Origin: a virus
Taxonomy: Duplodnaviria > Heunggongvirae > Uroviricota > Caudoviricetes
IMG/VR virus record: IMGVR_UViG_2737471857_000022
Reading direction: 5' to 3' (one strand)
Length of the DNA stretch: 36,183 nt
Shown here in pieces: positions 5,320 to 20,603 of this stretch (position 1 is its first letter; each line of letters starts with the position of its first letter). Under the pieces are notes generated by a model that was not told the DNA's origin, made no database searches, and worked only from the letters and a program-made list of their open reading frames with translations. Position numbers and translations under genes: made by a program.

Positions 5320-5341
5320 GTTAGGTCAACCCTTTGGCGTC

Positions 5342-5772: not shown

Positions 5773-5861
5773 TAAATTTCTATTATAAATAAAATTGTTC
5801 CGGTGGTGATGCCGGAACTAGGAGGACCAAATCATTAAACCGTTTAAGGGGAATTAATACT

Positions 5862-6737: not shown

Positions 6738-6844
6738 TTAATTTTTAGCCTCGCCTCGTGCGGGGCTTTTTCATACCTACATCACGCGACTTTTCGCGCC
6801 ATCTTCCACCAACCCGCCGATGGCGTTTTGGACACCCTACAGAT

Positions 6845-6870
6845 ACAAAAAAGCCACTCCGAAGAGTGGC
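6845..6870 (-). terminator. rho-independent terminator for the minus-strand operon 7754 to 6886
   Basis: GCCACTC-TTCG-GAGTGGC hairpin; A6 on + strand is T6 downstream on the minus strand. Confidence 0.65.
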
Positions 6871-6885
6871 AAAGAGAATCAAAAC

Positions 6886-7113
6886 TCAAAAACCTGTTGC
6901 TTCTACGATCTGACCATCACCGATCTGAACATAGAATTTAATGTCTAACTTCTTCATATTCTTATAGAATTGGGCGATTGAGATCCCATGTTCACTAAGA
7001 ATCTGTTCTTTCGCTTCCTTACCACGATCCGCTGTATAATAAGCGTAGGCAATATCAGCCATCTGTTCAGCGTTAAAACGGGCAGGGCGACCGCGAGTAG
7101 CTTTAGTAGTCAT
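6886..7113 (-). CDS. small HTH DNA-binding protein (about 75 aa from the second ATG; ORF opens with GTG at 7146)
   Basis: RGRPARF...GISIAQFYKNMKKLDIK HTH, paralogous to CDS 3296..3478; GGAG SD suits the ATG at 7113. Confidence 0.5.
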   Translation of the reverse strand: MTTKATRGRPARFNAEQMADIAYAYYTADRGKEAKEQILSEHGISIAQFYKNMKKLDIKFYVQIGDGQIVEATGF

Positions 7114-7148
7114 AGTCATTTTCTCCAAATTAAAGTGAATGTTCACCT

Positions 7149-7754
7149 TTATTTAGAGGACTTACATTTTATCGGAAAAAGTTCTTCATCGTCAATACTC
7201 ATAAAGAACTCTGCCTTAATCCCGTACTTCTTCAACCGTGAATAGTATGTACCCCGACTTATATCAACCTTGCGAAGCACTTCAAAGAACCCTTTAGGAT
7301 CGTTGTAATAGTGGCTATAACGCACGTTAGCGAGTTCAACGAATAGTTCCCTTGTATCACCATAGCCTTTCTTGAAAGCCTCGTTACGATAGCGTGTAAT
7401 TGCGTGATTCAATCTCTTCTGTTTCAACACTTCCCTGATCGGTGTCCACTGCAACCGATAGATAGGACCGTCATCAATGCGATAATAACGCTTGATATCA
7501 AAATCAAACCAATCTCGGACTCTCCGAAACTCTGTATGTGATGTTCTATGCTTCTTAAAGAAGTTGTGAACGTCTGTATAACCATTATCGCGGTAAAACT
7601 CTATTAAAATCTCTTTCGCTTCCTCACGACTAAAGCCAGATGTTGTGTAGTCGGTTTTTAAATGCTTATGCTTAACTGGCAAACGATATTCATGATCGGT
7701 ACAACAAGACAAGGCTAATTCTACTTCATCTCTTTGTTGCTGATTAATTAGCAT
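7149..7754 (-). CDS. hypothetical protein (201 aa) with C-terminal HTH related to the two small HTH proteins
   Basis: AAGGGGG SD 5 nt upstream; C-terminal [16 protein letters not shown] matches the HTH motif of 3296..3478 and 6886..7113. Confidence 0.6.
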
Positions 7755-7841
7755 ACAACCCCCTTAAATCTTAATACCCGTATTTATCAAAATATCAACA
7801 ATTTAATAAATACCTTCATATTTCGTAATGAGGGTAATTAC

Positions 7842-9749
7842 ATGAAACTGATTTCTAATAAGGCCAAATTAAAAAAGATTCTCAGAAATGCAGCCAAATA
7901 TATTACGCCACCGCCTAAACTCCTCCCTTCTGAATGGTGCGAAGCGAATATGGTGCTGGTAGATGGTCCTCAAGCTGGGGATAAAGTTAAATTGCTGTCA
8001 TTCCAGAAAGGCATGATTGATGCTCCTTTCCTTGAGAACAAGAAAAAGTATGTTCTGATGACCAGTGCGCAGATCGGAAAGACTACCATCCTGAACGGTA
8101 TCCTGTTTAACCAGATGGCTAACGATCCATGCAATATGATTATCGGACAATCAACCGCTAAAGAAATGTCTCAATATCTCGCGGGTAAGATCCGACCGTC
8201 CATCGAAGCATGTGATGCATTAAAAGACGTGGTTACAGACAAGAATGATCGCAATGCGGTTAACAACAATAACCAGCTACAGCTAAAAACGAATCACTTC
8301 CTGTACATGGTATCGCTTACCAGTCCATCAACCCTACGTGGTAAGACCGCAAAGGTTGGATTGCTTGACGAAATCGATGCTGCTACAGCCTCAGAAGAAG
8401 GTGATCCGGTGGCGCTGGCTGCTAACCGTTTAACTACCTTTGGCGATGAAGGTCGATTAGTCGTATCCAGTACCCCGACCAGTAAGCTCGGAAGCATTAA
8501 CCAGCAATGGTTATCAAGTGATATGCGTATGTTTTTTGTTCCGTGTCCTCATTGCGGTAGACACCAGGTGATCGAGTGGGAAAACGTACAGTTTGAATGG
8601 CGTAACATCGATGGTAAGAATTTACCCGATCCTGATACCGCTCGTTATATTTGCCCCCATTGTAAGAACGCATGGACAGAAGGGGAACGAATCAGGGCAG
8701 TAGCGCAAGGCGAGTGGAGAGCAACCCGTGAAAGTGAAGTAGCAGGATTCTGGATTAGCCGTCTGTATTCACCTTTCAGCACGATCCGCGCTTGTGTGGT
8801 TGATTTTAGTCATGCGTGGCAATCCTTTGATTTACAATCATTTTATAACACCGTGTTAGGCAAGGTATACGACGATCAGGACACGGCAGTAGAAGCAAAT
8901 GAACTGGAACAACTCAAAACAGATGTTTCTATCGAGAATATCCCTGATGACGTGATTTTCTTGTGTTCAGGAATCGACCAGCAATTGGACCGCGCAGAAT
9001 CTACCATCTTAGGTGTAGCGAAAGATAAGGTTTACATTCTGGATCACCGCAGCTTTTACGATCATAACTGTGAACGATATGAATCACCTGTTTGGGATCG
9101 TCTGGTTAACTTCAAGAAAACCAAATTCTATAACGTTAATGGTGAACGTGTGCCAATGCTCGCCAGCTTCCTTGATACATCGAACGGTCGATTCACTCAA
9201 GCCGGATACCGTATTTGTGGCAAGTGGAAGAACCTACACGCGATCAAAGGTAGTTCATCCGGTAATGCTCCAGTGATTCCGGTTAAACCTACCCGCACAG
9301 GTGGTCATGAATTGCTTATGTTGGGTGTTAACGTTGGGAAATCTGCTGTTCGTGAAATGCTGGTTAGAAACCTGAAAGACAATCCTCACATCGGCTTAGA
9401 AATATCAGAAACCGTTCCTGATGATTATCTCGATCAGCTTTTGAGTGAATCCATCAAGCGTACTACTACTGGCGTGCGTTGGGTGAAAAATCCAGGTAGT
9501 ACCCGAAACGAGGCTCTCGACTGTCTGGTTTATAGCTATGCTGCTTCTCGCTACGTCCTTTCAAAAATGTCATGGGATAAACTCATTGCAATGAAAGACA
9601 GCTTAAACCGTGTTGTCGAAGAACCCGTAAAAGCTCCTGAAACGCAATCTGACGAGCAAATCGAAGAAACTAAGCCAATCACACGACCACAACGTCAAAA
9701 CATCGCCAGACGTCCAAATAGAGGCCGTAGTTGGGTAACATCGTTCTAA
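7842..9749 (+). CDS. terminase large subunit, lambda GpA-like (635 aa)
   Basis: P-loop TSAQIGKT near residue 75, two Cys-x2-Cys pairs ([16 protein letters not shown]); size and position ahead of portal. Confidence 0.85.
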
Positions 9750-9755
9750 TAACTC

Positions 9756-9773
9756 GCCGTCCTTCGGGGCGGC
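9756..9773 (+). other. stem-loop (GCCGTCC-TTCG-GGGCGGC) after the terminase gene, no clear T tract
   Basis: Inverted repeat with UUCG loop; possible RNA processing or attenuation site. Confidence 0.35.
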
Positions 9774-9821
9774 TTACTCCTAAATATTGTTAATCCAATA
9801 ACAATTAAATAAGGGGTAATT

Positions 9822-10316
9822 ATGAGTTTAGAACTAATTCCCTTAGTAATTCGTAAAGGCGAAAAAGTCACGCTGGCGAATGAAGAGGGTGTAACAATTC
9901 AGGTAGGAAATAGTAAAGGTATCATTTATCAGGTTGATGATTCTCCGGCTAATCACGAGATTAAAACCTTAGATTTTGCCGAAGGTAAATATACCATCGT
10001 AACAACTTTGGAAGATGAACTGGTATCAATGCAGGAATTAACTGTTTTGCCAGTATTCGCCAAACAATCCAAAAAAGAATATCTGCGGGAAACTATCGCC
10101 AAAATCGAGCAAGTTATTTTCGCCCGTTTATCTGGGGACGAAGCCGCATTATCTCAAATGACAGTGAAAGGGAATACTTTCGTTTATGAGTCATTAGGTG
10201 TTCTCCAGACTCTAAAAGTCGATTATGAACGTCAGTTATCAAAATTAATTCAAGCCGAACGACGTAAACAGGGAATTAGCCCGATTAAAAATATTAAAGT
10301 ACGTCTTACGCGATAA
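9822..10316 (+). CDS. hypothetical head-associated protein (164 aa) in the lambda W position
   Basis: ORF with TAAGGGGTAAT SD context between terminase and portal. Confidence 0.6.
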   Translation: MSLELIPLVIRKGEKVTLANEEGVTIQVGNSKGIIYQVDDSPANHEIKTLDFAEGKYTIVTTLEDELVSMQELTVLPVFAKQSKKEYLRETIAKIEQVIFARLSGDEAALSQMTVKGNTFVYESLGVLQTLKVDYERQLSKLIQAERRKQGISPIKNIKVRLTR

Positions 10317-10326
10317 GGGGTAAATC

Positions 10327-11835
10327 ATGTTTAATCTTTTTCGACGCAAAAAGGTGGTAGAAACTCCAGTTAAAACTAATCACCGCCAGCAACAAAAATT
10401 ATTCATCAACAAATCTGTAGAAAAATACCAGAATGACCTGAATAAACGAAGTTTAGGATTGGTGGGTGATCGCATTGATGGATCGCTTCAACAAGATACT
10501 ATCACAGGAACCTTCAATAAGGCTCTTAAATCGAACGCTAAACGCCTTTATGATCAGGGTCGTACTCTGGCCTTAAACACTGCTGTAGGCAGTCGCTACA
10601 CGCAATACATAACCGATATGGTGGTTGGTACTGGCCTAGATCCGAAACCATCTATGGTTAAATCAAACGGGAAACTTGATAGCGCACTGAATAAGCAGAT
10701 CGAGAATGCTTTCTGGAAGTGGGCGCAGAATGCTAAACGCTTCTCTCGTAATGGTCGCTTTAACTTCCGTGAATTGCTGGTAATGGCTGAACGTGAGCGC
10801 GTTATGGGTGGTGAGTGCTTCATCGTTTTAACTAAAGAAAACAATGAGTTAAACGTTTCTATCCTGTCTGCTGATAAGTGCGACTGGACGCTCAACCGTG
10901 AAGTTAGTAAAGACCGCGCGATATATCAAGGTGTGGAGTATGACGTAGAGACAATGCGCCCTGTTGCATACTGGTTTCGTAAAATCAACCTACTGACTCA
11001 GACCTACACTGGTGATAACTATCGCGTAGATGCTTCTCAAGTATGCCATTATTATCAACCACTTGCGGCTGAATCTCTTCGTGGTGTGACTGACTTCCTG
11101 CCAGTGATTAAGGACATTGCTCATCAAGACGCATTCCGCGAAGCAGTTTTAATACAGAAGAGAATCGCAGCTACAGCAATGGGTTTTATCGAGCGCCCGA
11201 AAGATTCCGGTGACGATTTTGATACTGGTGAAGATGAAGACCAATATCAAGCGCCGGACGTTATTCACGATTTCGCGCCCGGTACTATTCAGGAACTGCC
11301 GGAAGGGGCAACGATCAAGAGTATTCAGAGCAACCAAAGCGGCGACGACTTTAACAGCTTTAACAGTGGAATGTTCACGAGTATCGCAATGGGATTGGGC
11401 GTGTTCAATCAGGGCTTAACTGGTGATACTAGCCAGATCAACTACAGCGCTGCACGCTTTGGGGAACTACTTCAACGTAACCGCGTTAAAGCACTGCAAA
11501 ACAAATTAATTGAAACGGTGGTATTGCCAATTTTCGAAGCGTATCTGCGTCATTATTCCGCGCGTGGTGTTGTTCCGATTCGTATTACTGCAATCCCGCA
11601 TGTTATCGATAATACAACTATTATTAGACCACGTTTCGAGTCCGTTGACGTCAATAAAGATGTGAGCGCCGATATTGCTTTAATTGATAAAGGACTTAAA
11701 TCACGTACTGCTGTTATTCTTGAACGTGGTGATGATCCTGAAAAAGTATTCTCAGAGATTCAAGCCGAAAAAAGCGCACTAAATATTATCGTTAATGGCG
11801 AGAGCAAGGATAACCCTTCTCAAGCCGATCCCTAA
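10327..11835 (+). CDS. portal protein, lambda gpB-like (502 aa)
   Basis: Position after terminase, size, acidic Asp/Glu-rich segment; TAAGGGGTAAA SD. Confidence 0.8.
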   Translation: MFNLFRRKKVVETPVKTNHRQQQKLFINKSVEKYQNDLNKRSLGLVGDRIDGSLQQDTITGTFNKALKSNAKRLYDQGRTLALNTAVGSRYTQYITDMVVGTGLDPKPSMVKSNGKLDSALNKQIENAFWKWAQNAKRFSRNGRFNFRELLVMAERERVMGGECFIVLTKENNELNVSILSADKCDWTLNREVSKDRAIYQGVEYDVETMRPVAYWFRKINLLTQTYTGDNYRVDASQVCHYYQPLAAESLRGVTDFLPVIKDIAHQDAFREAVLIQKRIAATAMGFIERPKDSGDDFDTGEDEDQYQAPDVIHDFAPGTIQELPEGATIKSIQSNQSGDDFNSFNSGMFTSIAMGLGVFNQGLTGDTSQINYSAARFGELLQRNRVKALQNKLIETVVLPIFEAYLRHYSARGVVPIRITAIPHVIDNTTIIRPRFESVDVNKDVSADIALIDKGLKSRTAVILERGDDPEKVFSEIQAEKSALNIIVNGESKDNPSQADP

Positions 11836-11843
11836 TAACCAAC

Positions 11844-11860
11844 GGGGGCGCAATGCCCCC
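11844..11860 (+). other. stem-loop GGGGGC-GCAAT-GCCCCC after the portal gene
   Basis: Perfect 6-bp GC stem; no T tract. Confidence 0.35.
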
Positions 11861-11880
11861 AATTAATTAAAGGTGATTAA

Positions 11881-13884
11881 ATGCTTAAATTTCGCCGCGA
11901 TCTTAACGGTTACGGTGGAGTTATTAACGAAGGGCATAACGATCAATACGAATTTGAAATTGCTTTCTCAAGTACACAGCCTTATCAGCGCCAATTTTGG
12001 GATGAGCAAAATCAAGAAATGGTGGTATTAGATGAAATTCTGGTACATACACCGGAAGCGGTTGATCTGTCTCGTCTGAATAATAACGCTCCGTTGCTGT
12101 TCAATCATAATTTCGATAATCACATTGGTGTAGTCTGCGACGCTCGAATCGATGCGGATAACGTAGGCCGTGCTCTGGTTAAATTCTCTAAGCATGGCAC
12201 TTTGGCTAATGATATTCGCAATAAAGTCATTGAAGGTACGATGGAAAAAATTTCTGTCGGTTATGACATTAAAGAATATCACATCGACTACACCAAAGGG
12301 CAATTGATTGTTACTAAGTGGGCGCCTTTTGAAATTTCATTTGTGACGGTTCCCGCAGACGATTCGGTCGGTTTAAATCGCTCTCTAAATACTATCACAG
12401 TTAATTTGGGGGCTAAACGCGATATGACTAAAGAACAAATCGAAGAAATCAAAGAAGAACAAGAACCCGCTCAGGTTGAAGAAACTCCGGTAGAAGAAAA
12501 TAAAGAACCGAAAGTTGAAGAAACTCAAGAGCGCCAAGTTGAAGAGAATAAAGAAGATGAAAATCTCGAAGACGGAAAAGACGCTAAACATCCTGAAAGT
12601 GTTGATGATGATAGTTCAACTGTTCGGGAAACAGAAGAAGTAAAAGAAGAACGTGAAGCCGCTCCGGTTGAAGAAGAAAAAACCGAAGAAGTGGCTGAAC
12701 GTTCCGAAGAAGACGAAGAAGAAATCCGAGCAATCGCGCGGGAACTAAATATTGACGACGAAGAATTGAAACGCGCATTGGCAATTAAAGACATGACGCC
12801 GGAAGCATTCCGCACTAAGGCACTAAATAATCTCGTCAATGCTCAACGTAATAACGAACAAATTAAGGACTCTAAAATGGAAAAAACTTTTGACCTGAAC
12901 AACGTAATTCGCTCTCTGGTAGATGGTGAAGCTCTGGGTGCTAACGAAGCCGAGTTTTCTGCAATGGCTGCTACTGCAACTATGCAGCGTGGTCGTGCTG
13001 CTCGCGGTGGCTCTGTATTCGTTCCGACTGCTGCTATGCGTGCTGCTGCTGATGGTAACACCAAAGCTACTCTGACCGCTGTAACCGACGAAAAACTGCT
13101 GAATGATTCCTATGTAGCGATGCTGTTGCCGGAATCCGTTCTGGGTCGTCTTGGTGTGAAAGTCCTGTCTGGTCTGACTTCGCCGACCGCTATTCCTAAA
13201 ATGACCGCTTCCAGCGTTGAATCTTTCGGCTTCGTTGATGAAAACGGTGCTGCGCCGGAAGGTAAAGCTGAATTTGCAAACGTGAAAATGGCTCCTAAGA
13301 CGTTTGCTGGTGGGAATCCGATCAGCAGAGCTAGCCTCAAGACCGTACCCGGCATCGCTACCCTGATCACTGATCACATTAACCAGGCTGTTCGCATCAA
13401 ACTGGAACAACTGATTCTGTCCGACAAAGAAAATGCTCGTGGTCCGGCTGGTGTGATTAAACAACTGGTAGATGCTGGTCGCGTAGAGAAGAAAGCTGCT
13501 TTCTCTTATAAAGACTTCCTGAAAGAAATTGCTAAACTGACCGACGCTGGCGTTCCTGCTCAGGCGATCAAGTTTGCAATGAGCGGTGCAACTGCTGCTG
13601 AACTGGAATCTACCCTGAAAGATAACGGTGTTTCCGGTTATATCATCGAAAACGGTAAACTGGCTGGTTACGACGTAGTTACTTCTGGTGTTATTCCGGT
13701 AGACCACATCGTTCTGGGATCGTTCGACGCTATTACCATCGGTGAATGGGGTGGTCTGGAACTTGACATTGATGACACTACCTACCGCGCACAGTCTGCT
13801 ATCGTTCCGCGTATCTGGGTAGATCTGGATTACGTTGTAACCCAGCCGGAAGCGCTGAAAGTTCTTCACATCTCCGCTGAATGA
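11881..13884 (+). CDS. single polypeptide fusing prohead protease (HK97 gp4-like), acidic scaffold/delta linker and HK97-fold major capsid protein (667 aa)
   Basis: N-terminal 170 aa carry protease-like motifs (LLFNHNFDNHIG, ISVGYDIKEY, EISFVTVPADD). Residues about 180-300 are Glu/Lys-rich low complexity. The C-terminal 340 aa are capsid-like. Confidence 0.8.
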   Translation: MLKFRRDLNGYGGVINEGHNDQYEFEIAFSSTQPYQRQFWDEQNQEMVVLDEILVHTPEAVDLSRLNNNAPLLFNHNFDNHIGVVCDARIDADNVGRALVKFSKHGTLANDIRNKVIEGTMEKISVGYDIKEYHIDYTKGQLIVTKWAPFEISFVTVPADDSVGLNRSLNTITVNLGAKRDMTKEQIEEIKEEQEPAQVEETPVEENKEPKVEETQERQVEENKEDENLEDGKDAKHPESVDDDSSTVRETEEVKEEREAAPVEEEKTEEVAERSEEDEEEIRAIARELNIDDEELKRALAIKDMTPEAFRTKALNNLVNAQRNNEQIKDSKMEKTFDLNNVIRSLVDGEALGANEAEFSAMAATATMQRGRAARGGSVFVPTAAMRAAADGNTKATLTAVTDEKLLNDSYVAMLLPESVLGRLGVKVLSGLTSPTAIPKMTASSVESFGFVDENGAAPEGKAEFANVKMAPKTFAGGNPISRASLKTVPGIATLITDHINQAVRIKLEQLILSDKENARGPAGVIKQLVDAGRVEKKAAFSYKDFLKEIAKLTDAGVPAQAIKFAMSGATAAELESTLKDNGVSGYIIENGKLAGYDVVTSGVIPVDHIVLGSFDAITIGEWGGLELDIDDTTYRAQSAIVPRIWVDLDYVVTQPEALKVLHISAE

Positions 13885-13905
13885 ACTCCTGTAGAACCAT
13901 CTGAA

Positions 13906-13927
13906 CCTTCCCCCAAATCGGGGGAAG
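13906..13927 (+). other. perfect hairpin CTTCCCCC-AAAT-CGGGGGAAG, 22 nt after the capsid TGA stop
   Basis: 8-bp stem; lies inside an in-frame stop-free stretch following the capsid stop codon. Confidence 0.45.
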
Positions 13928-14018
13928 AAAATCTGATTCCTAAACCGGAAGAAGAATCCCAGACGGTTACGGCGAAAGCCACAGTTAAAAAACAGCGTAA
14001 AACTAAAGAATAATAATT

Positions 14019-14046
14019 AGCCCTGCCTAACGGTGGGGCTTTTTTG
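14019..14046 (+). terminator. terminator-like hairpin plus T6 after the capsid gene
   Basis: AGCCC...GGGGCT followed by TTTTTTG. Confidence 0.5.
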
Positions 14047-14075
14047 TATGTAAATACTCCATAAAGGGGGTAACT

Positions 14076-14366
14076 ATGTTCAAATTATCAGAATCACAAT
14101 TATCAAGAATGTTTAAGAGTGCTCCTGTATTTTCGGTGGAAGGTGGTAAATCAATTCGTGCTTATCATGAAATTACTACTACCGACGAACAAGGGGTAAT
14201 GACAGAAACAGAATTTCTATTTTGTCGTGAGGGAGACTTAAAGCAAGGTGATATTGTCATTGTAGAAAATCAGCGTTTCAAAGTTCAATACGTTAAGCGC
14301 AATGGTGACAATACTTGTGATTGCTTTATCACTTTAGCAGGGGGTACACATGCTCGCTACCGTTAA
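14076..14366 (+). CDS. head-tail joining protein, lambda FII-like (96 aa)
   Basis: C-terminal LKQGDIVIVENQRFKVQYVKRNGDNTCDCFITLAG resembles lambda FII (LRRGDTLTIGEENFWVDRVSPDDGGSCHLWLG, recalled). Confidence 0.55.
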   Translation: MFKLSESQLSRMFKSAPVFSVEGGKSIRAYHEITTTDEQGVMTETEFLFCREGDLKQGDIVIVENQRFKVQYVKRNGDNTCDCFITLAGGTHARYR

Positions 14367-14772
14367 TAATATGCCGAGACTGAAAATCAAACGCGCCTTG
14401 CAAGATATTATCGAACAAGATTTAGGTCTGGCTTTAAACGTAGAACAAACTCAGCAAGGCTTTAGTGATGACGTGGTTTGTTGGATTACTGGCATGAATG
14501 AAACTTATACGCGTGTTCGTGGTGGTAATGCAATGCAAGCTGAATGCGTTATCGAAATGCAGTTATATTCTCAGATTCATGAAACGAAAATTCATGAGGG
14601 TATTTGCCAGATAATCCAGATTCAGCCAGATAACCCACGATTTAAAGATTTGGGCTTCTCTATTTCAGATATCACTCCAGTAGCTTCTAATACCGATTAT
14701 GACGATGATTCTAGTGATGGGGGTATCGTTGGGACACTTAGCCTTAAATTTTCTTATCTAGCGCGTTTTTAA
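14350..14772 (+). CDS. tail terminator, lambda gpU-like (140 aa)
   Basis: GGGGG SD; DVVCWITGMNETYT...QAECVIEMQL and C-terminal DYDDDSSDG resemble gpU (recalled). Confidence 0.5.
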   Translation: MLATVNNMPRLKIKRALQDIIEQDLGLALNVEQTQQGFSDDVVCWITGMNETYTRVRGGNAMQAECVIEMQLYSQIHETKIHEGICQIIQIQPDNPRFKDLGFSISDITPVASNTDYDDDSSDGGIVGTLSLKFSYLARF

Positions 14773-14781
14773 GGGGTAATA

Positions 14782-15615
14782 ATGAATATTACACAAGATA
14801 ACTTAGACATTTTCACGGGGTCGCATGTTGAAGTCTCCGTGTCTACTATGGTGGATAACCAGCCGGACTTTTTCGATCCTGCATTTAGTCCTATCGAGAA
14901 CATCGCAGCATTCCCGACGATAACCGAATCCACAGAGATCCAGACGTTAGAAGAGTATGATCAGGACGCTACTGGTAAACTTGCTGGCTATCGTAAACTT
15001 GAATCAACTACGTTAGTAGTAAACCGTGTTCTGGATGACGAACATCAAGACATGTTGATGAAAGCGGTGAATGATAAAACTCCTTTACGCTTTCGTATGT
15101 TCTATGTTGTGAACTCTGGTTACAGTGCTGCTAACACAGGTTACTACGTCATTTTTGACGCTTATGTCTCGTCACATAAAACAAAATCCGGTGATAACAA
15201 AGTTACTACAATCGAGTTTAAATTAGAACCTGATGGCGGGATTCTAGATCGCGGTATTGCTACCGAAGGCCGGATCTTACGTCAGGGTGATTTTGGTTTG
15301 GGTGCTGGTGTAAATCCATTCACGGGTCCGATTGATAGCGAAGCATTAGCCGGAAACCGTTTCGTAACCTATCAGGGATCGAGCGCATCTAACCCATTTA
15401 GTGCTGATACTTCACTAATTCACGTTCAACCTAATGAAGATGGTGGATGGCAATTAACTTGCACCGCTTCTGGTGCACCACGTTTACGAGTTCGCACAGT
15501 CCAGAAAGACGGTAATTCTGGATGGGTGAAATTGTATTCCACAGAAGAAAAACCGACACCAGCCGAGATTGAAGCCGTTTCTATCCATGACCGGATCGAT
15601 TTCGGGGAATACTGA
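14782..15615 (+). CDS. tail-tube paralogue with about 110 aa C-terminal extension (277 aa); candidate fibre-attachment collar/ring protein
   Basis: N-terminal 165 aa align with CDS 20097..20567 (DIFTGS/DIFSGG, IAAFP/CAAFP, KLAGY.../KLVGR...). C-terminus has KPTPAEIEAVS, also found in the fibre. Confidence 0.6.
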   Translation: MNITQDNLDIFTGSHVEVSVSTMVDNQPDFFDPAFSPIENIAAFPTITESTEIQTLEEYDQDATGKLAGYRKLESTTLVVNRVLDDEHQDMLMKAVNDKTPLRFRMFYVVNSGYSAANTGYYVIFDAYVSSHKTKSGDNKVTTIEFKLEPDGGILDRGIATEGRILRQGDFGLGAGVNPFTGPIDSEALAGNRFVTYQGSSASNPFSADTSLIHVQPNEDGGWQLTCTASGAPRLRVRTVQKDGNSGWVKLYSTEEKPTPAEIEAVSIHDRIDFGEY

Positions 15616-15640
15616 TTGCTTCTCTAAATAAAACATGACG

Positions 15641-15672
15641 GGGAGGTTAACGCCTCCCTTATTCCTGTTTTA
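15641..15672 (+). terminator. rho-independent terminator (GGGAGG-TTAACG-CCTCCC plus T-rich tract)
   Basis: Perfect 6-bp stem followed by TTATTCCTGTTTT. Confidence 0.55.
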
Positions 15673-15686
15673 TGTGAGGTGATTAG

Positions 15687-18600
15687 ATGCAATCAATCCA
15701 ATTTAAACGAACTAATGTTTCTGGCAAAAAACCAACGCCGGAACAATTACAGGTCGGTGAGGTAGCAATCAACCTTAAAGACCATGTTATTTTTACCAAA
15801 GACCGAGATCATGAAGTAGTTCAAATCTCTGTTTCTCCTGAAACTCACGCGGCACTAGAATCTAAAGTTGATGCTAACAAACAAGAACTAGATAGCACAA
15901 TTGCAGTAAATGACCGCAATATTCACGCTAAAGTAGATGAAATTAAACAAACTACTGATGCAACCATCGCAGCAAATCACGCAGAAATTAACAATAAAGT
16001 TGATGTAATTAAACGCGAAACCGACGCGACAATCGAGGCCAATAAAAATAAAGCTGCTTCCGACCTTGCTGGTGTTAAAGCTGAATTGTCGGATACCATC
16101 AACGCTAATAAAAATGCGGCTGCTGTAGCAACTCAGGAACTGGACACCCGCATCAATAAAAAAGTTGATGATATTAAATCCCGCACCGATGCAACCATCG
16201 CAAGCAATGACAAAGCAATCAATGACAAGGTTGATTTGATTAAGGCAGAAACTGACCGCACTATCGCAGCAAATAAAGTCTATGCGGAAAATCAGTTAAC
16301 TGACACCTACAATAACCTTACTGGTGTGATTGCAGCCAATAAGCAAGAGGCAGCGGATAACGTCGCAGCATTAACCCGTGATGTTGAAGCCAAAAATACA
16401 GCAATTCATAGCAAAATTGACAACAACAAGGTTTACACTGATTCTGAATTGGCACGCTTAGAAAGCCGTATTGATGCAGCCGATGGATCTGCTGATGGCA
16501 AGTACATCAAAAAACACGTAAACACTTATACTGATGGTTATTTGCTGTCTAAGACCGCAAACTATTTTGATGATCCAAGTGCGCGTAATCTTGATTACTT
16601 TGGTGCATTCCGTATGAATGACCTAGCGGGTCATATTGCTTTAGCGTTACATGTTCCGCATCCATCCGGCGTTAATCATGCTCGTGGTTTTGAGTTCACT
16701 TATGGGTCTAATCCACATGCTACGGTAAGAACATACGGCTATGATGAATTGGGTCATTTGGCATATTCTCACCGCATGTATCATGAAGGTGATAAACCTA
16801 CTCCGGCTGAAATTGGCGCATATTCGAAAGCAGAAATTGACCGCCTGTTCCAGAAGACGCTTAATTTTGGTATCGAGGGCGGTTGGTTTAAACTAGGCAC
16901 TTTGACAATGCCACAGCAACACGGTCGCACCGCTAAGATCCGTTTGGTTGGTGGTAACGGTTATAACGTCGGGATGAATGGACAAGCCAATATTATCGAA
17001 TTGGTGATTCGATGCGGCAACAATAGCCCGAAAGGTGTTGTATTCAATGCTTATTATAGCATCTGGTATCACGAACAACATTTTTGTGCAATTCCTACCG
17101 ATGGTGATAATTACGATCTTTACGCTTACTATGGTGCACATACAGGATTTGTTTTAGCAGAATATCAAGTTTCTTCCGGTGGTGTTTCTTTAAACCTGTT
17201 GGATACTCCTGAATACCTGGGCGGTGAAAAACCTGTTGCAGATGAAATTTTTGATGCTCTTAACATTTCATCGTTCAATAACTTTAGCAACCGTGGAACG
17301 TTAAATTTTGGCGGAAACCATCAAGGCCAATATGATATTGAGCATTTGAACGAACAACAAACAAATGCTAAAAAGATGTTGCGTCGCTTCCGTAGTTCTG
17401 CTCCTGCCACTATCTGGCATGAAACTGTTGATGATAACGCATATCGTCTTGCTACTGGATACGAAGATACAAATCAGGAATTATTACTGACAGCAACAAC
17501 CGGATTACATATCAAGAAATTAACATTGGATGGCGGTGTTGGTGGAAATTCTGGTATTGATATTCGTCGAGGACCAAATGAAGCAAGCCATTTTAATTTC
17601 ATGGATTATCGCACTGGTCAAGATGTTCGTAATGGCTGGTTTGGTTTTGGTGACGGTCAGACGAAAGATTTTATTTGGTGGAACGATAACGGTCAAAACT
17701 CAATCAACCTGATCGAAAACGGTGAATTGCATATTACTGGTGGTAAAGGCCAGAAAATTGTAATGAATAGCGAAGTTGCATTGTCTGAAAATGCTCGTTT
17801 GGCTGTCAAAGGCGGTAACTATGGTTTGATTTTACGCAATGATGGTTCTGGTTTCCATATTCTTACTACCAATTTAAAAGATTCTTTTGGTAGTTGGAAT
17901 AATCGCAGACCATTCAGTTATGATTTTGCGGACGGTGGATTATATTTAGGTGGTACTGAAACCGCTCGGTGTTTACATCTGGGGATTGATGGTAGCACTC
18001 GTCTTGAAGACAACCTGTTCTTTAAAGCTGGTTCTCGTCAATCTATGGACTATATGGAACTCGTCCATTGGGGGGCAAGCAATACAGGTCGAAATAACGT
18101 TTTAAGTCTTCGTGACTCAAAAGGATTTTTCGCAGAATTTGAAAGATTGGGTGATAATACCATTAAAAACTCCTTCTTTGGTAAACTTAAAATTAATCGC
18201 GGATCTGATGCAATTATCATGAATGCCGAAAGTGGTGATTCTTCTGTATATTTGTTGGGTACGTGTGCTGATAACAATAATTGGTATATCGGTAAAGGCG
18301 GCGCTGATAATGGATTGGCGTTCTATAGTTATGCTACTAATGCTGCTGTAAACATTACAAACGCGGGGGATATCGCTCTAAGTCCAAAAGGCATCGAAAT
18401 GACTCATGTCAATAACGTTCGATTCTATGTTCATGGTGAACGTTGGACTGCTAGCCAATCTGGAGGTTGGAACGACCAGTGGGGATTAGAAGCGCCGATA
18501 TTTGTCGATCATGGTTATGTTTCACCGGACTGTTATTACCCAATTATTAAAGGAAGAAGTTTAATCACCAATCAAGGGTATACAACTGCCGTCGATTTTG

Positions 18601-19097
18601 GTCTGCGTCGTGTTCCTAATGCATGGGGACAAGCAATTATTCGCGTTGGATCTGCGGAGGCATCGCCAGCGGCTGGTCATCCTCAAGCTGTATTCGAGTT
18701 CCATCATGATGGTACTTTTTACTGTCCTGGTAATGGTAACTTTAACGATGTTTATATTCGTTCCGATCGTCGTCTGAAAATTAATGTTGAAGATTACGAA
18801 GAAAATGCGGTGGATAAGGTAAATAAACTCAAAGTTAAAACCTACGATAAAGTTAAATCTCTTAATGACCGAGAAGTTATAGGTCATGAGATTGGTATTA
18901 TCGCACAGGATTTACAAGAGGTATTACCGGAAGCTGTTAAAACCGCAAAAATTGGTGGTTTTGATAACCCAGAAGAAATTTTAACAATTTCAAACTCCGC
19001 AGTGAACGCGCTTTTAATTAAAGCGGTCCAAGAAATGAGCGAAGAAAATAAACTTCTTCGTGAACGTCTTGCTGCAATTGAAGCTAAATTAGGGTAA
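15687..19097 (+). CDS. side (L-shaped-type) tail fibre with C-terminal intramolecular chaperone domain, T5 pb1-like (1136 aa)
   Basis: Four about 22-aa repeats (xIxxKVDxIKxxTDATIxAN) at aa 77-200. C-terminal 110 aa (YIRS/DRRLK...GIIAQDLQEVLPEAVK...NSAVNALLIKAV) resemble the S74-type chaperone of T5 pb1 and endosialidases (recalled). Confidence 0.85.
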   Translation: MQSIQFKRTNVSGKKPTPEQLQVGEVAINLKDHVIFTKDRDHEVVQISVSPETHAALESKVDANKQELDSTIAVNDRNIHAKVDEIKQTTDATIAANHAEINNKVDVIKRETDATIEANKNKAASDLAGVKAELSDTINANKNAAAVATQELDTRINKKVDDIKSRTDATIASNDKAINDKVDLIKAETDRTIAANKVYAENQLTDTYNNLTGVIAANKQEAADNVAALTRDVEAKNTAIHSKIDNNKVYTDSELARLESRIDAADGSADGKYIKKHVNTYTDGYLLSKTANYFDDPSARNLDYFGAFRMNDLAGHIALALHVPHPSGVNHARGFEFTYGSNPHATVRTYGYDELGHLAYSHRMYHEGDKPTPAEIGAYSKAEIDRLFQKTLNFGIEGGWFKLGTLTMPQQHGRTAKIRLVGGNGYNVGMNGQANIIELVIRCGNNSPKGVVFNAYYSIWYHEQHFCAIPTDGDNYDLYAYYGAHTGFVLAEYQVSSGGVSLNLLDTPEYLGGEKPVADEIFDALNISSFNNFSNRGTLNFGGNHQGQYDIEHLNEQQTNAKKMLRRFRSSAPATIWHETVDDNAYRLATGYEDTNQELLLTATTGLHIKKLTLDGGVGGNSGIDIRRGPNEASHFNFMDYRTGQDVRNGWFGFGDGQTKDFIWWNDNGQNSINLIENGELHITGGKGQKIVMNSEVALSENARLAVKGGNYGLILRNDGSGFHILTTNLKDSFGSWNNRRPFSYDFADGGLYLGGTETARCLHLGIDGSTRLEDNLFFKAGSRQSMDYMELVHWGASNTGRNNVLSLRDSKGFFAEFERLGDNTIKNSFFGKLKINRGSDAIIMNAESGDSSVYLLGTCADNNNWYIGKGGADNGLAFYSYATNAAVNITNAGDIALSPKGIEMTHVNNVRFYVHGERWTASQSGGWNDQWGLEAPIFVDHGYVSPDCYYPIIKGRSLITNQGYTTAVDFGLRRVPNAWGQAIIRVGSAEASPAAGHPQAVFEFHHDGTFYCPGNGNFNDVYIRSDRRLKINVEDYEENAVDKVNKLKVKTYDKVKSLNDREVIGHEIGIIAQDLQEVLPEAVKTAKIGGFDNPEEILTISNSAVNALLIKAVQEMSEENKLLRERLAAIEAKLG

Positions 19098-19103
19098 TTG
19101 GAA

Positions 19104-19123
19104 AGCGGGGAGAAATCTCCGCT
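19104..19123 (+). other. stem-loop after the fibre gene
   Basis: AGCGGGGA-GAAA-TCTCCGCT, one mismatch, no T tract. Confidence 0.3.
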
Positions 19124-19135
19124 AAGGATTCTTAT

Positions 19136-19432
19136 ATGGGATATTGGGTAAGTAGTGAAATTAATACTAAAATCGATGCTTTAAAATGGCATGTATTTGA
19201 TATTCCTAACGGCTATGGTACTGCTCGTGCTGGTGTCGCTGTAATGCGTCATAATGCTGGTGGTGGGTGGTCTGATGCACATATTAACGTAGATGGTTTG
19301 ACCGTTGCTCGTCGTCGTGGTGGGACCAATTGGGGATCTACTATAAATTCGTTTGTTCCTGCTGGCTGCACCGTCTCCTTTGGTTTAGGGGGTGAAGGTG
19401 GTGTTGAATATTTTAAATTCATGGAGTTTTAA
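19136..19432 (+). CDS. small fibre-module protein, paralogue A (98 aa)
   Basis: AAGGA SD; shares W..(F/Y)FDIPNG(W/Y), Gly-rich middle and TVSF...YFKF with the next two ORFs. Confidence 0.65.
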   Translation: MGYWVSSEINTKIDALKWHVFDIPNGYGTARAGVAVMRHNAGGGWSDAHINVDGLTVARRRGGTNWGSTINSFVPAGCTVSFGLGGEGGVEYFKFMEF

Positions 19433-19434
19433 TT

Positions 19435-19740
19435 ATGGCTGGATGGATAAATCAAAGAATGTCAAACGCTATTAGTATTTGGGCTAATGGTGGATATTTT
19501 GATATCCCCAACGGCTGGGTTACTGATTCATGCGGAATTGTTTTTGCTCATATGGAAGCCATTAACGGTGCTGGTGATCTTGATTCTGAATTGGCTGTAA
19601 ATGGATTGATTGAATCAGGTCATCATGCTGGTGATGCTGGGAGTTGGGGCGCTAGTTCTTTAGTTGGCGCTGGTGCTACCGTTAGCTTTACATTGGGTAA
19701 AGGTAGTTTGCATTATTTTAAATTCAGGAGAATGCACTAA
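19435..19740 (+). CDS. small fibre-module protein, paralogue B (101 aa)
   Basis: Start 2 nt after the stop of A; same motif set. Confidence 0.65.
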   Translation: MAGWINQRMSNAISIWANGGYFDIPNGWVTDSCGIVFAHMEAINGAGDLDSELAVNGLIESGHHAGDAGSWGASSLVGAGATVSFTLGKGSLHYFKFRRMH

Positions 19741-20042
19741 TGGCATTTTGGGTAGATGGCGCTTTGGGGAATAGGGCGGGTAAAGCAAATCAAGGATGGT
19801 TTGATATTCCTAACGGTTGGACAGCCGACGCTTTCGGGACTATTTCATTCTGTGCTCATTCTTCCGGTGGTGGCGGTGGTGACTCTGAATTGCTTATTCA
19901 TGGTTTGTGTGTTTCTGGAAGCCATAAGGGTCATGATTGGGGACAGATTCATTCTTGTATTGCACCGCAAGGGGCGGTAATTACCGTTAGCACAAATAGG
20001 GGGATCGCTCATCTTCGTTATAGACGTTTGAGCAACCGCTAA
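19740..20042 (+). CDS. small fibre-module protein, paralogue C (100 aa)
   Basis: TAATG stop/start overlap with B; same motif set, more diverged C-terminus. Confidence 0.6.
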   Translation: MAFWVDGALGNRAGKANQGWFDIPNGWTADAFGTISFCAHSSGGGGGDSELLIHGLCVSGSHKGHDWGQIHSCIAPQGAVITVSTNRGIAHLRYRRLSNR

Positions 20043-20096
20043 ATAAATAGAATTACGGGTATGTGCCCTATTGTTTAAAATAGAAGGAAAAGAATA

Positions 20097-20567
20097 ATGA
20101 CTACTAAATTTGATATTTTTTCTGGTGGCCTCGTTGGTCTGTTTCTGCATGAAGAAGTAACTAACACCGATCTTGACAGTGAAAGCTATCTGGAAATTCC
20201 AGAATGTGCGGCTTTCCCGGAAACTGGTGTAGAACGTTCTACTATCGATGTTCCTAACTTCGGTGGTCCGTATAACCGTAAGCTGGTTGGTCGTATGTCT
20301 GTACCGGATATCGAACTTTCGATCAACTACATGCCGGGTAACGAAGTACACGAAAAACTGATTAAAGCAACCGAAGACGGTAAGCGCGTACAGCTTAAAA
20401 TTGCTTACTACATCGACGCTACGAAAAAATCTGGTGTGCACATCGCTTATAACGGCTTCCTGTCTAAAACTACCATGACGGGCGGTGAAGATGCTGTAGT
20501 AGGTCGTTCTTTCACCTTTGTAGTAGATGGTGCTCCGGTTAAACAAGCTGTTTTCCAGAAAGTCTAA
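20097..20567 (+). CDS. major tail tube protein, lambda gpV N-domain-like (156 aa)
   Basis: ELSINYMPGNEVHEKLIKATEDG resembles gpV [23 protein letters not shown] (recalled). Sits directly ahead of the chaperone pair and tape measure; strong terminator downstream. Confidence 0.7.
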   Translation: MTTKFDIFSGGLVGLFLHEEVTNTDLDSESYLEIPECAAFPETGVERSTIDVPNFGGPYNRKLVGRMSVPDIELSINYMPGNEVHEKLIKATEDGKRVQLKIAYYIDATKKSGVHIAYNGFLSKTTMTGGEDAVVGRSFTFVVDGAPVKQAVFQKV

Positions 20568-20575: not shown

Positions 20576-20603
20576 AGCCATCCTTCGGGGTGGCTTTTTT
20601 GTT
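20576..20603 (+). terminator. rho-independent terminator (AGCCATCC-TTCG-GGGTGGCT plus TTTTTTG)
   Basis: 8-bp stem, UUCG loop, T6. Confidence 0.75.

Follow-up and report, generated by a model that had tools for sequence, protein, structure and literature searches.

The closest described system is the distal long tail fibre of T-even phages (gp36-gp37-gp38; RB49-like Krischvirus, T2 and Salmonella phage S16). The N-terminal end of gp37 is bound by the C-terminal end of gp36 (PMC9603124). Parts of the locus described here also resemble Peptidase S74 chaperones (K1F endosialidase, T5 pb1, S16 gp37 and the MYRF ICA), the lambda side fibre Stf, the tube proteins lambda gpV and SPP1 gp17.1*, and gp38 of T2 and S16. 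Classical tail-fibre mosaicism was reportedly described by Haggard-Ljungquist and Sandmeier, with lambda Stf and prophage side fibres sharing segments with T4 gp37.

The window (the whole stretch of DNA that was analysed) contained 36,183 nucleotides. The fibre gene and the genes that frame its region are as follows.

15687..19097, + strand, side-fibre gene, 1136 aa (ORF call, Pfam, PHROG and tblastn)
20097..20567, + strand, canonical tail tube protein, 156 aa (PHROG 158, E = 1e-19; Pfam lambda TTP)
20576-20595, 3' of the canonical tail tube gene, strong terminator (terminator scan)

ORF 15687-19097 probably encodes a long side (accessory) tail fibre, mosaic in its make-up, of a siphovirus-like, low-GC E. 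coli prophage. This confidence applies jointly to the whole explanation, from connector and docking through rod, distal fibre and chaperone to tip cap. The protein is of a familiar kind, joining a coiled-coil spacer to a distal fibre of the T4 family, which removes its own folding chaperone. Each part is known when taken singly. What is new is how the fibre seems to plug onto the tail, together with a set of three small tip-type genes that accompany it. A good ribosome-binding site (AGGTGA) lies 6 nt 5' of the start at 15687, and the protein begins with MQSIQFKR, a start common to all relatives. The initial annotation had reported the ORF, the 22-residue repeats, two copies of KPTPAEI and a C-terminal chaperone; all are real and had been placed correctly. 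The prophage was carried by 58 of 5426 complete E. coli genomes and was not found in the phage collection searched.

The fibre is homologous to that of T-even phages in its connector, its beads ending in …YHEGxKPTPAE…, its Gp34_trimer-like domain, its DVYIR tip end and its S74 chaperone. Likeness peaks at 85% amino acid identity and at 100% nucleotide identity over 600 nt. As with T-even gp36, the upstream partner ends in the gp36 C-terminal sequence. Unlike the T-even phages, the virion here is that of a non-contractile-tail prophage without gp34, gp35 or gp36, and it is a tail-tube paralogue that bears the gp36-type tail. A predicted 220-aa hendecad coiled coil also separates the connector from the first bead; gp38 is lacking, and three ~100-aa genes of predicted C1q/TNF-like type sit in the slot next to the fibre gene. 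Like lambda Stf, the protein is an accessory side fibre of a temperate siphovirus with a distal part exchanged with T-even phages. In contrast to Stf, the exchanged part here extends to the connector logic of the gp37 N-terminus and brings an intramolecular chaperone in place of a separate Tfa/gp38-type one. The position of the gene differs as well: it has the head-tail joining genes on one side and the tube gene on the other, and is not 3' of gpJ.

Distal fibre and self-cleaving chaperone

16830..18179, + strand, gp37-type shaft, aa 382-831, with a Gp34_trimer-like domain at aa 644-745 (Pfam PF21446, E = 9e-13)
18180..18761, + strand, exchangeable distal tip, aa 832-1025, ending NGNFNDVYIR (comparison with relatives)
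18759..18764, + strand, predicted scissile bond Arg1025/Ser1026 (homology with S16, fPS-2 and T5 pb1)
18762..19094, + strand, Peptidase_S74 intramolecular chaperone, aa 1026-1136, 111 aa (Pfam PF13884, E = 5.6e-15)

Residues 273-1025 are a distal fibre of the T-even gp37 type, made up of bead domains, a shaft and an exchangeable tip. The gp37 of KFS-EC, a T4-like Krischvirus, was 85% identical to aa 283-1136 (tblastn), and the shaft matched PDB entries 5yvq and 4uxe. Nucleotide identity to KFS-EC gp37 was 60-76% before nt 17270. Over 17270-19403 it was 84-100%, except for one 90-nt window at 72% near 17810. The shaft region from nt 17270 on was 84-97% identical outside one such window, and 18800-19340 was 100% identical in every 90-nt window except one (98%). 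The distal fibre is shared with virulent Krischvirus phages at 84-100% nucleotide identity and was therefore exchanged recently by recombination. The tip was 93-95% identical to those of KFS-EC and ETEC4085 and 79% identical to that of fPS-2. In PK8568 it is swapped for unrelated sequence.

The last ~110 aa had been read as an intramolecular chaperone, and a full Peptidase_S74 match establishes this for aa 1026-1136 at the level of sequence. The match covers aa 1026-1085 and model positions 1-58 of 58, with 55.8 bits against a cut-off of 22. The domain is a typical member with no substantive difference from other Peptidase S74 chaperones. It has their Ser-x4-Lys dyad (SDRRLK), their C-terminal position behind a beta-rich trimeric tip and their helical C-terminal half. 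The Ser1026 codon is at nt 18762, and Lys1031 follows five residues on. PDB sequence matches were S16 gp37 (6f45, E = 1.5e-5), the MYRF ICA (7dc3) and a tail fibre (8jov). The KFS-EC chaperone is 98% identical.

The initial annotation had put the cut at Ser1026/Asp1027, which is off by one. The sequence around the predicted cut is DVYIR-SDRRLK. Cleavage occurs at DLNVS^SDRRIKK in S16 and at DVYIR^SDGRLKI in fPS phages (PMC7917993). The mature end of T5 pb1 is residue 1263, and its catalytic residues are Ser1264 and Lys1269 (PMC4690869). By homology with these proteins, the scissile bond is most likely Arg1025/Ser1026 (nt 18759-18764). The chaperone should drive trimer folding and then, like its homologues, remove itself using Ser1026/Lys1031. 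A cut after Arg1025 would leave …NDVYIR as the new C-terminus of the fibre.

Small genes behind the fibre and capping of the tip

19136..19432, + strand, small paralogue s1, 98 aa (same-length gene in Krischvirus G37-3 and G2248)
19435..19740, + strand, small paralogue s2, 101 aa, predicted C1q/TNF-like jelly roll (AF2 mean pLDDT 83)
19740..20042, + strand, small paralogue s3, 100 aa (sequence comparison with relatives)

In S16, fPS-2 and the ETEC4085 prophage, the gp38 adhesin would dock on this exposed tip, and DVYIR has been described as the gp38 docking strand (PMC7917993). No gp38 was found within the window. The best candidates for tip capping and receptor binding here may be s1-s3, which is the weakest step of the proposed mechanism. 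Like gp38 of T2 and S16, they lie directly 3' of a gp37 with a self-cleaving chaperone, and they are swapped for gp38 in a sister prophage. Unlike gp38, which is one 260-aa monomer, they are paralogues, three in number and ~100 aa long, that are predicted to fold as C1q/TNF-like jelly rolls and lack a glycine-rich PGII domain. They had no detectable sequence similarity to gp38. In BFVD, s2 matched C1q-domain and tail-fibre proteins. Its family is rare, with 19 representatives among 1.84 billion proteins.

In ETEC4085, a fibre of 92% identity shares this tip, but its chaperone is of fPS-2 type and gp38 is present. The left breakpoint of this exchange falls on the codons for the cleavage site; downstream of gp38, a piece of the s3 3' end survives. 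G37-3, the one phage genome that was fully scanned, contains the small-gene trio and no gp38 across its whole 167.8 kb. The usual gp38 slot is empty in G2248. The three genes travel with the chaperone and occur where gp38 is absent, a side lead, with KFS-EC keeping a degenerate trio beside its gp38. This remnant counts against capping by s1-s3.

It is possible, though we favour it less, that the mature tip (…NDVYIR) binds the receptor directly after chaperone release, and that s1-s3 are not virion adhesins. They could then be assembly factors, superinfection-exclusion proteins or linked unrelated morons. T5 pb1 sets the precedent, binding O-antigen with its own tip once its chaperone is removed (PMC4690869). 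The dissimilarity of s1-s3 to gp38, their modest C1q/TNF fold match and the small-gene remnant next to gp38 in KFS-EC also fit direct binding. Nearly the same tip is nevertheless paired with gp38 in KFS-EC, ETEC4085 and fPS-2, and the fPS-type tip is described as a docking platform (PMC7917993). Within the prophage family, the trio and gp38 replace each other cassette for cassette, and G37-3 is without any gp38. In a prophage and in two phage lineages, s1-s3 all keep their lengths and evolve under purifying selection (pN/pS of s1, 0.04-0.32). C1q/TNF-like heads are also typical fibre tips. These points argue for tip capping by s1-s3.

Connector, tail-tube paralogue and docking

14782..15615, + strand, tail-tube paralogue, 277 aa (PHROG 158 major tail protein, E = 1.9e-10)
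15550..15612, + strand, gp36-like C-terminal tail of the tube paralogue (KPTPAEIEAVSIHDRIDFGEY), putative docking site for the fibre N-terminus
15640..15659, + strand, GC-rich stem-loop between the tube-paralogue and fibre genes (consensus scan only)
15687..15842, + strand, N-terminal connector, aa 1-52, homologous to the gp37 N-terminus

The connector was 41-42% identical to aa 4-54 of gp37 from KFS-EC, G37-3, JSE and fPS-2 (E about 1e-15). It is kept at 69-76% in prophage fibres with differing rods and tips, and it was also found in the distant relatives L009 and DCP80. The stem-loop upstream of it is possibly a leaky terminator or an RNA-stability element.

The tube paralogue has an N-domain with a lambda gpV-like tube fold and a fibre-type bead as its C-domain (~aa 160-277). 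In its AF2 model, read in blocks of 10 residues, pLDDT was 74-94 over most of aa 11-160 and fell to ~50 at aa 51-70 and aa 111-120; confidence in the C-domain was low (pLDDT 30-75). Foldseek matches in the PDB included 9mfe and 8k36 (E about 1e-7) and full-length lambda gpV. It was 20% identical to the true tube protein (E = 3e-4), and its C-domain matched tail-fibre genes of Vibrio and Shewanella phages (E about 1e-3). Like lambda gpV, with its Ig-like domain, and SPP1 gp17.1*, it has a tube fold followed by an exposed C-terminal domain. Unlike them, it is separate from and additional to a normal 156-aa tube protein, and its extension consists of fibre bead domain(s) ending in a gp36-type terminal peptide. 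There is one bead domain here, three in P0096/P0097 and ~430 aa of them in DCP80.

The fibre connector would most likely dock on this gp36-like tail (…KPTPAEIEAVSIHDRIDFGEY), which is encoded directly upstream. Such docking is plausible because the last 27 aa of the tube paralogue match the C-terminal end of Krischvirus gp36, with which the gp37 N-terminus pairs. The extreme end of that gp36 (LYHEGHKPTPAEVGAVPLNAVIDFGTF) was 50% identical to the last 28 aa (E = 5e-6). D273 and G275 are invariant among 20 homologues, and F274 is conserved in at least 90%. The T4-type gp36 of fPS-2 ends in DFGYY. A fibre docked at this site would sit on a ring in the non-contractile tail. A hexameric tube-fold ring would then have to take up trimeric fibres, and this unexplained stoichiometry counts against the joint.

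The fibre might instead be anchored at the baseplate/Dit, at a gpJ-like tip protein or at the neck, leaving the bead and tail of the tube paralogue as mere decoration of the tube surface. We consider this rather unlikely. Decorative C-terminal domains are common on tube proteins, the lambda gpV Ig domain and the SPP1 gp17.1* extension being the models, and the tube protein of L009 has an Ig-like extension. The Foldseek match to full-length gpV and the symmetry mismatch, which disfavours a simple joint, point the same way, and a neck position is conceivable for a gene that adjoins the head-tail joining genes. Against this reading, the last 27 aa match gp36 right at its C-terminal end, and gp36 is what a gp37-type N-terminus naturally binds. 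The …IDFG(E/T)(Y/F) tail also stays nearly invariant even where the preceding domain is expanded to 465-698 aa. In every relative examined, including a 38%-identical metagenomic relative and DCP80, the tube paralogue lies next to a fibre with this N-terminus, an adjacency kept across deep divergence. Docking on the tube paralogue remains the preferred reading.

Bead motif and repeat rod

15843..16502, + strand, repeat rod, aa 53-272 (22 = 2 x 11 residue periodicity)
16503..16829, + strand, first bead domain, aa 273-381, ending in MYHEGDKPTPAEIGAYS (PHROG 8378 and 20472)

KPTPAEI occurs at aa 370-376 of the fibre (nt 16794-16814) and at aa 257-263 of the tube paralogue (nt 15550-15570). A third KPTP is at aa 15 of the fibre. 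By our estimate, an exact 7-residue match between a 277-aa and a 1136-aa protein has a chance expectation of ~1e-3 to 1e-4. The likeness of the two proteins extends past the motif (BLASTP, 33% identity over 83 aa, E = 1e-5; hhalign, probability 80%, E = 1.5e-5). MYHEGDKP.P.E is invariant across 8 fibres and gp37s. The bead-domain profile matched the phage Mu S fibre 8ju3 at aa 317-436 (E = 0.0035), and the domain was present in 140 phage records, including Krischvirus gp37, Felixounavirus fibres and Aeromonas phage gp36. KPTPAEI is the conserved final strand or linker of a recurring bead domain, present in gp36, gp37, Mu S and the tube paralogue. The initial annotation had suggested a shared docking or recombination motif. 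For the tube-paralogue copy, docking is a plausible role; the copy inside the fibre is the conserved end of a bead domain, and the case for recombination is weak.

A role for KPTPAEI as a site of DNA recombination between the two genes was rejected; the copies disagree at 5 of 7 third codon positions, and no mosaic breakpoint falls there. It is improbable that the motif is primarily a recombination linker, that is, a conserved DNA island for fibre-module shuffling. A 65-nt island (16776-16840) is 80% identical between the window and H2 fibres that are otherwise diverged (35% amino acid identity), and modular exchange is evident throughout the fibre gene. The breakpoints against KFS-EC, G37-3, PK8568, ETEC4085 and fPS-2 nevertheless lie near 17270, 18180, 18730-18760 and 19845. 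No run of identical nucleotides common to both window copies is longer than 5-6, and conservation across gp36, gp37, Mu S and tube paralogues is at the protein level.

The rod contains four canonical copies of the 22-aa unit (IxxKVDxIKxxTDATIxAN), starting at aa 79, 101, 156 and 178, and two degenerate copies at aa 57 and 123, in keeping with the four to six that had been counted. Residues 145-155 are an 11-aa spacer, and degenerate hendecads run on to ~aa 265. The periodicity is 22 = 2 x 11 residues. Autocorrelation of aa 53-272 (BLOSUM62; 300 shuffles as reference) gave z = 9.5 at lag 22, 5.4 at lag 44, 5.1 at lag 55 and 4.1 at lag 33. Spectral power was 74 at period 3.67 and 8.5 at period 3.5; the former is just ~2 SD over the shuffle maximum, and the strong signal is the 11/5 harmonic. 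TRF found no 66-nt tandem array in the rod DNA. The copies have ~70% internal DNA similarity and are old at the DNA level.

The proposed coiled coil is supported, on a hendecad and not a heptad basis. The rod has hydrophobic residues at positions 1/5/8 of the 11-residue frame, with Ile and Asn alternating at position 8. Residues 53-272 would form a trimeric hendecad alpha-helical coiled coil, acting as a spacer ~30 nm long. A beta-structured or disordered repeat shaft is very improbable: the rod is rich in Thr, Asn and Asp, and one distant relative has a beta-type rod at the equivalent place instead of helical-type repeats, but here there is no Pro in 220 aa, only 4 Gly (three within the last ten residues), 18% Ala, a strict a/e/h hydrophobic pattern and a resemblance to 11/22-mer apolipoprotein helices (Pfam match sub-threshold). 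Rod length had been expected to vary with repeat number. No such variation was seen among 27 related E. coli genomes with this rod, which are no more than 4 nt apart over an aligned stretch of 1769 nt. The rods of distant relatives are ~115, 197 and 225 aa long and have other repeat architectures (lags 11, 18, 29 and 51).

Gene content and neighborhood of the fiber

The side fiber and its neighbors lie together on the plus strand.

14782-15615 (+): 277-aa protein, tube paralogue
15687-19097 (+): 1,136-aa side fiber
19136-19432 (+): small paralogue s1, 98 aa
19435-19740 (+): small paralogue s2, 101 aa
19740-20042 (+): small paralogue s3, 100 aa

The fiber ORF is intact and has a good ribosome-binding site. 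Its N-terminus, MQSIQFKR, is the same in all of the relatives compared. The gene order is lambda-type terminase and portal, protease-capsid fusion, two small head-tail proteins, the 277-aa protein, the fiber, the three ~100-aa genes, a 156-aa tube protein, two chaperone-like genes, the tape measure, and a gpJ-like tip protein. The terminase and portal, tube protein, tape measure, and gpJ-like tip make this a siphovirus-like neighborhood, and the genes are arranged as in a phage with a noncontractile tail. No sheath gene and no gp34, gp35, or gp36 gene was found in the fiber neighborhood. The fiber is therefore a homologue of gp37, the distal subunit of the T-even long tail fiber, but does not form part of such a fiber. 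Whereas T-even gp37 is part of a gp34-gp35-gp36-gp37 fiber on a contractile-tail baseplate, the fiber of the window is part of a siphovirus-like setting.

The prophage region is present in 58 of 5,426 complete Escherichia coli genomes at 80 to 99% identity. The phage collection held no close relative of the region except for the fiber. Neither the fiber nor the tube paralogue nor any of the small genes matched a family in NCBIfam. In several other E. coli strains, the fiber region of the prophage is broken by insertion sequences (IS903B, IS421, ISVsa5, and IS1B) or by a GIY-YIG nuclease gene (hits H103, H105, H67, and H70).

The capsid gene and the tube gene are each followed by a strong hairpin of terminator type (14019-14040 and 20576-20595, respectively). 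A GC-rich hairpin with a poor T-tract lies between the tube-paralogue and fiber genes (15640-15659). From the hairpin positions, the genes from 14076 to 20567 look like a single transcription unit. A promoter scan found fewer sites than in shuffled sequence and is therefore uninformative. The capsid gene (11881-13884, 667 aa) is a fusion of a protease-like N-terminal part, a linker, and a major capsid domain. The linker (about aa 180 to 300) is very acidic and rich in Glu and Lys. ARAGORN called a 91-nt tRNA-Glu(ttc) on the minus strand (14537-14627), inside a 140-aa ORF on the opposite strand (14350-14772). This call is probably a false positive.

Modules of the fiber and their exchange

The fiber belongs to well-known classes. 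It is a textbook-style mosaic in which a gp37 homologue and an S74 chaperone are combined with a coiled-coil spacer. The features that the initial annotation described are confirmed, and its reading of them holds in part. The unusual parts are its mounting and the candidate adhesin set.

(a) Shaft and tip. Residues 283 to 1136 are 85% identical to gp37 of KFS-EC, a virulent T4-like Krischvirus. The fiber matches PHROG 1699 (E = 5e-126), and the homology to gp37 extends along both shaft and tip. It contains a Gp34_trimer-type domain (aa 644 to 745), relatives of which have been solved structurally in phage Mu S and T4 gp34. Nucleotide identity with KFS-EC is 60 to 76% up to nt 17270. From nt 17270 to 19403 it is 84 to 100%, except in one 90-nt window of 72% near nt 17810. 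Between 18800 and 19340, every 90-nt window is 100% identical, with one exception at 98%. Identity at the nucleotide level reaches 100% over 600 nt, so that the fiber is a clean, datable case in which a temperate siphovirus prophage and virulent T4-like phages have exchanged sequence recently. The tip (aa 832 to 1025) is an exchangeable cassette. It is swapped in the E. coli prophage PK8568, whose fiber is otherwise 92 to 100% identical. The tip of the window is shared with KFS-EC and the E. coli prophage ETEC4085 (93 to 95%) and with Yersinia phage fPS-2 (79%).

(b) Repeat rod. The 22-residue repeats reported in the initial annotation are real and far beyond chance (BLOSUM62 autocorrelation over aa 53 to 272, z = 9.5 at lag 22, 5.4 at lag 44, and 4 to 5 at lags 33 and 55). 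The rod contains four canonical 22-aa copies, starting at aa 79, 101, 156, and 178, plus two degenerate copies and one 11-residue spacer. The repeats are visible at the protein level only and are ancient at the DNA level, where internal similarity is ~70%. Tandem Repeats Finder, run on 15600-19200, returned only a 29-nt match of 15-nt period and no 66-nt array.

The periodicity is, by its residue pattern, the signature of a hendecad (11/3) coiled coil and not of a heptad one. Positions 1, 5, and 8 of the 11-residue frame (a, e, and h) are 75%, 75%, and 47% hydrophobic, with Ile and Asn alternating at position 8. The rod contains no proline. Spectral power is 74 at period 3.67 versus 8.5 at period 3.5, and the 11/5 harmonic is above that of all 500 shuffles. 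A sub-threshold Pfam match to the 11/22-mer helices of apolipoproteins agrees with the hendecad reading. The rod would be helical, and it would also be trimeric, since the gp37 and chaperone parts are trimeric.

The rod had been expected to vary in length by repeat number. Among 27 genomes that share it, there was no change in copy number, and the aligned stretch differs by 4 nt or less. The rods of sister lineages are ~115, 197, and 225 aa long and are made of other patterns of 11, 18, 29, and 51 residues. In one distant relative, the shaft is of beta type and the S74 domain is missing. Given the constant 22-mers and the other patterns of the sister rods, length varies in the family by module replacement, with no sign of 22-mer gain or loss.

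(c) Chaperone. The C-terminal intramolecular chaperone was confirmed. Pfam PF13884 (Peptidase_S74) matches aa 1026 to 1085 over positions 1 to 58 of 58 (E = 5.6e-15; 55.8 bits against a cutoff of 22). PDB sequence matches are 6f45 (gp37 of Salmonella phage S16, E = 1.5e-5), 7dc3 (MYRF ICA), and 8jov (tail fiber). Ser1026 and, five residues on, Lys1031 lie at the start of the domain in DVYIR-SDRRLK, with SDRRLK starting at nt 18762. SDRRLK aligns with SDRRIK of S16 and with Ser1264/Lys1269 of T5. The S16 cut is DLNVS^SDRRIKK, and that of the fPS phages was placed at DVYIR^SDGRLKI (PMC7917993). The mature end of T5 pb1 is residue 1263, and its catalytic pair is Ser1264 and Lys1269 (PMC4690869). 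Because DVYIR-SDRRLK lines up with the S16, fPS, and T5 sites, the cut is expected between Arg1025 and Ser1026 (nt 18759-18764), which would free a 111-residue chaperone. Judged from the same three sites, the initial annotation, which had the cut between Ser1026 and Asp1027, was one residue off, and the annotated cleavage site should be corrected to Arg1025-Ser1026. By analogy with these fibers, the chaperone is predicted to be released by self-cleavage after trimerization.

Attachment of the fiber and the tube paralogue

Residues 1 to 52 of the fiber form a connector. Residues 1 to 51 are 41 to 42% identical to aa 4 to 54 of gp37 (E about 1e-15), so that at the sequence level the fiber has the gp36-binding N-terminal domain of gp37. 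In T-even fibers, gp36 attaches through its C-terminal end to the N-terminal end of gp37 (PMC9603124).

The 277-aa protein is a distant paralogue of the actual tube protein. Its N-terminal 160 residues have a lambda gpV-like tube fold (Foldseek E about 1e-7). The AF2 pLDDT of this domain is 74 to 94 in most 10-residue blocks, with dips to about 50 at aa 51 to 70 and 111 to 120. Its last 27 residues, LYSTEEKPTPAEIEAVSIHDRIDFGEY, match the C-terminal end of Krischvirus gp36, LYHEGHKPTPAEVGAVPLNAVIDFGTF, in an end-to-end alignment. They contain the gp36-type terminal sequence …Y(H/S)xxxKPTPAE(V/I)xAVxxxxIDFG(T/E)(F/Y)-COOH, aligned with gp36 of the Krischvirus phages KFS-EC, G37-3, and JSE. T4-type gp36 ends in DFGYY. 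The gp36-type C-terminal connector is kept in 20 tube paralogues, and the …IDFG tail is kept even where the tube paralogue reaches 465 to 698 aa. Tube paralogue and fiber adjoin in E. coli variants with differing rods and tips, and also in a 38%-identical metagenomic relative and in the record of Escherichia phage DCP80.

DCP80 (PQ671644.1, 141 kb) is labeled Straboviridae/Gaprivervirus. Its positions 3252-15560 are syntenic with the prophage and include the terminase, portal, capsid, a 698-aa tube paralogue, the fiber, and the tube protein. Either its taxonomic label or its assembly may be in error.

Both copies of KPTPAEI are where the initial annotation placed them, at aa 370 of the fiber (nt 16794) and aa 257 of the 277-aa protein (nt 15550). 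It had proposed a shared docking or recombination motif. The sharing holds and reaches further, as the two copies are part of a more extended match (33% identity over 83 aa, E = 1e-5; hhalign probability, 80%). The motif is not a DNA recombination site, since 5 of its 7 third codon positions differ and there is no breakpoint at the motif. A megablast match to G37-3 that starts at 16773 suggested one; sliding-window identity shows none there, and the start is a word-seeding artifact. A 65-nt conserved island lies at the motif between the otherwise diverged fibers of the window and of the E. coli prophage H2.

KPTPAEI closes a domain and is not an isolated motif. MYHEGDKP.P.E is invariant in eight fibers and gp37s. 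Krischvirus gp36 contains four such endings, and in the longer tube paralogues there are three, with GDTMTGxL after each. The profile of this bead domain matches the solved phage Mu S fiber (…IYTTTRKPSAGDVGAYTQAE, 8ju3, E = 0.0035), and the domain was found in 140 phage records. The C-domain of the tube paralogue independently matches tail-fiber genes of Vibrio, Shewanella, and Aeromonas phages. A profile of this C-domain (A1) gave only noise against PDB sequences, and its AF2 pLDDT of 30 to 75 is too low to place KPTPAEI in the structure.

Given the gp36-like tail and the gp37-type fiber N-terminus, the tube paralogue is most simply read as the putative fiber socket, with its tail as the site that would receive the fiber N-terminus. 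The mismatch of symmetry between a hexamer and a trimer counts against this docking, as does the poor model of the C-domain. The peptide pair, a …KPTPAE…IDFG(T/E)(F/Y) C-terminus and a gp37-type IQFKR…GELAINL N-terminus, appears to be a portable plug and socket across tail types. It could matter for host-range engineering and annotation.

A mini-fiber of 198 aa (P0014) was found on a 1.4-kb contig. It contains a gp37-type N-terminus 69% identical to that of the window fiber, a short coiled coil, and a gp36-type C-terminus, …MDFGTF. It carries both plug and socket and so could be an extension piece.

Small genes downstream of the fiber

The three small paralogues form a tandem trio (19136-20042) and share an FDIPNG motif and, at the N-terminus, a conserved M-x-x-W. 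Three genes of identical lengths follow gp37 in the Krischvirus phages G37-3 (95 to 98% nucleotide identity) and G2248. They are under purifying selection (pN/pS, 0.04 to 0.32). The family is very rare, and a set of 1.84 billion proteins contains 19 representatives of it. For s2, AF2 predicts a jelly roll (mean pLDDT, 83), which is putatively of the C1q/TNF type. Heads of that type are compact, trimer-forming jelly rolls of 8 to 10 strands.

DVYIR is described in the literature as the docking surface for the gp38 adhesin once the chaperone has been released (PMC7917993), and RB49-like phages use the same mode of gp38 docking (PMC9569957). No gp38 was found in the window by BLASTP and tblastn with three gp38 variants. 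The small genes were considered as gp38 and rejected. They have no similarity to it and only one conserved Trp (Trp4). The N-terminal attachment domain with Trp prongs and the glycine-rich PGII receptor domain that define gp38 were not found in them.

The small genes move with the fiber chaperone between the prophage and Krischvirus phages and are found where gp38 is missing. The usual Krischvirus gp38 slot is ~55 kb from gp37 (bioRxiv 10.64898/2026.04.02.716166). It is empty in G37-3 and G2248, and G37-3 contains no gp38 anywhere in its genome. KFS-EC has gp38 in the usual slot, ~55 kb away, and only one chimeric small gene downstream of gp37 (L002, 7598-7921). The 5' part of this gene is from s1 and the 3' part from s3, which looks like a deletion between paralogues. 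The ETEC4085 fiber is 92% identical and has the same tip, but it continues with an fPS-2-type chaperone and then a T2-type gp38. Its left breakpoint falls on the codons of the cleavage site, and a 3' remnant of s3 persists.

From synteny and predicted fold, the small proteins may be alternative tip adhesins, a reading that we hold tentatively, short of an even chance. Rather doubtful is the fuller proposal, in which the tube paralogue would be a dedicated gp36-type adaptor that plugs a T-even distal half-fiber onto a noncontractile tail, and the three small proteins would be a new class of detachable tip adhesin that caps …DVYIR in the place of gp38 after chaperone release. They would perhaps do so as a 1:1:1 heterotrimer, an idea that comes from all three genes always being kept together. 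If this were true, the class would be used by the prophage family and by Krischvirus phages that lack gp38, such as G37-3. These rare, putatively C1q/TNF-like proteins are now annotated as hypothetical and may be an unrecognized adhesin class. If they are adhesins, receptor-prediction pipelines that seek gp38 would miss them.

G2248 contains a 715-aa hypothetical gene inserted near its empty gp38 slot (L021, 8894-11038, minus strand), and G37-3 has no such gene there. A 168-aa protein follows the tube gene of the H2 prophage (L003, 11141-11647). Its N-terminal attachment domain resembles that of gp38 (46% identity over 52 aa) and its C-terminal part is unrelated, and it may be a third adhesin type in the prophage family. 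The interval 19001-20000 has the highest GC skew of the window (+0.30) and overlaps the Gly- and Trp-rich small genes shared with Krischvirus.
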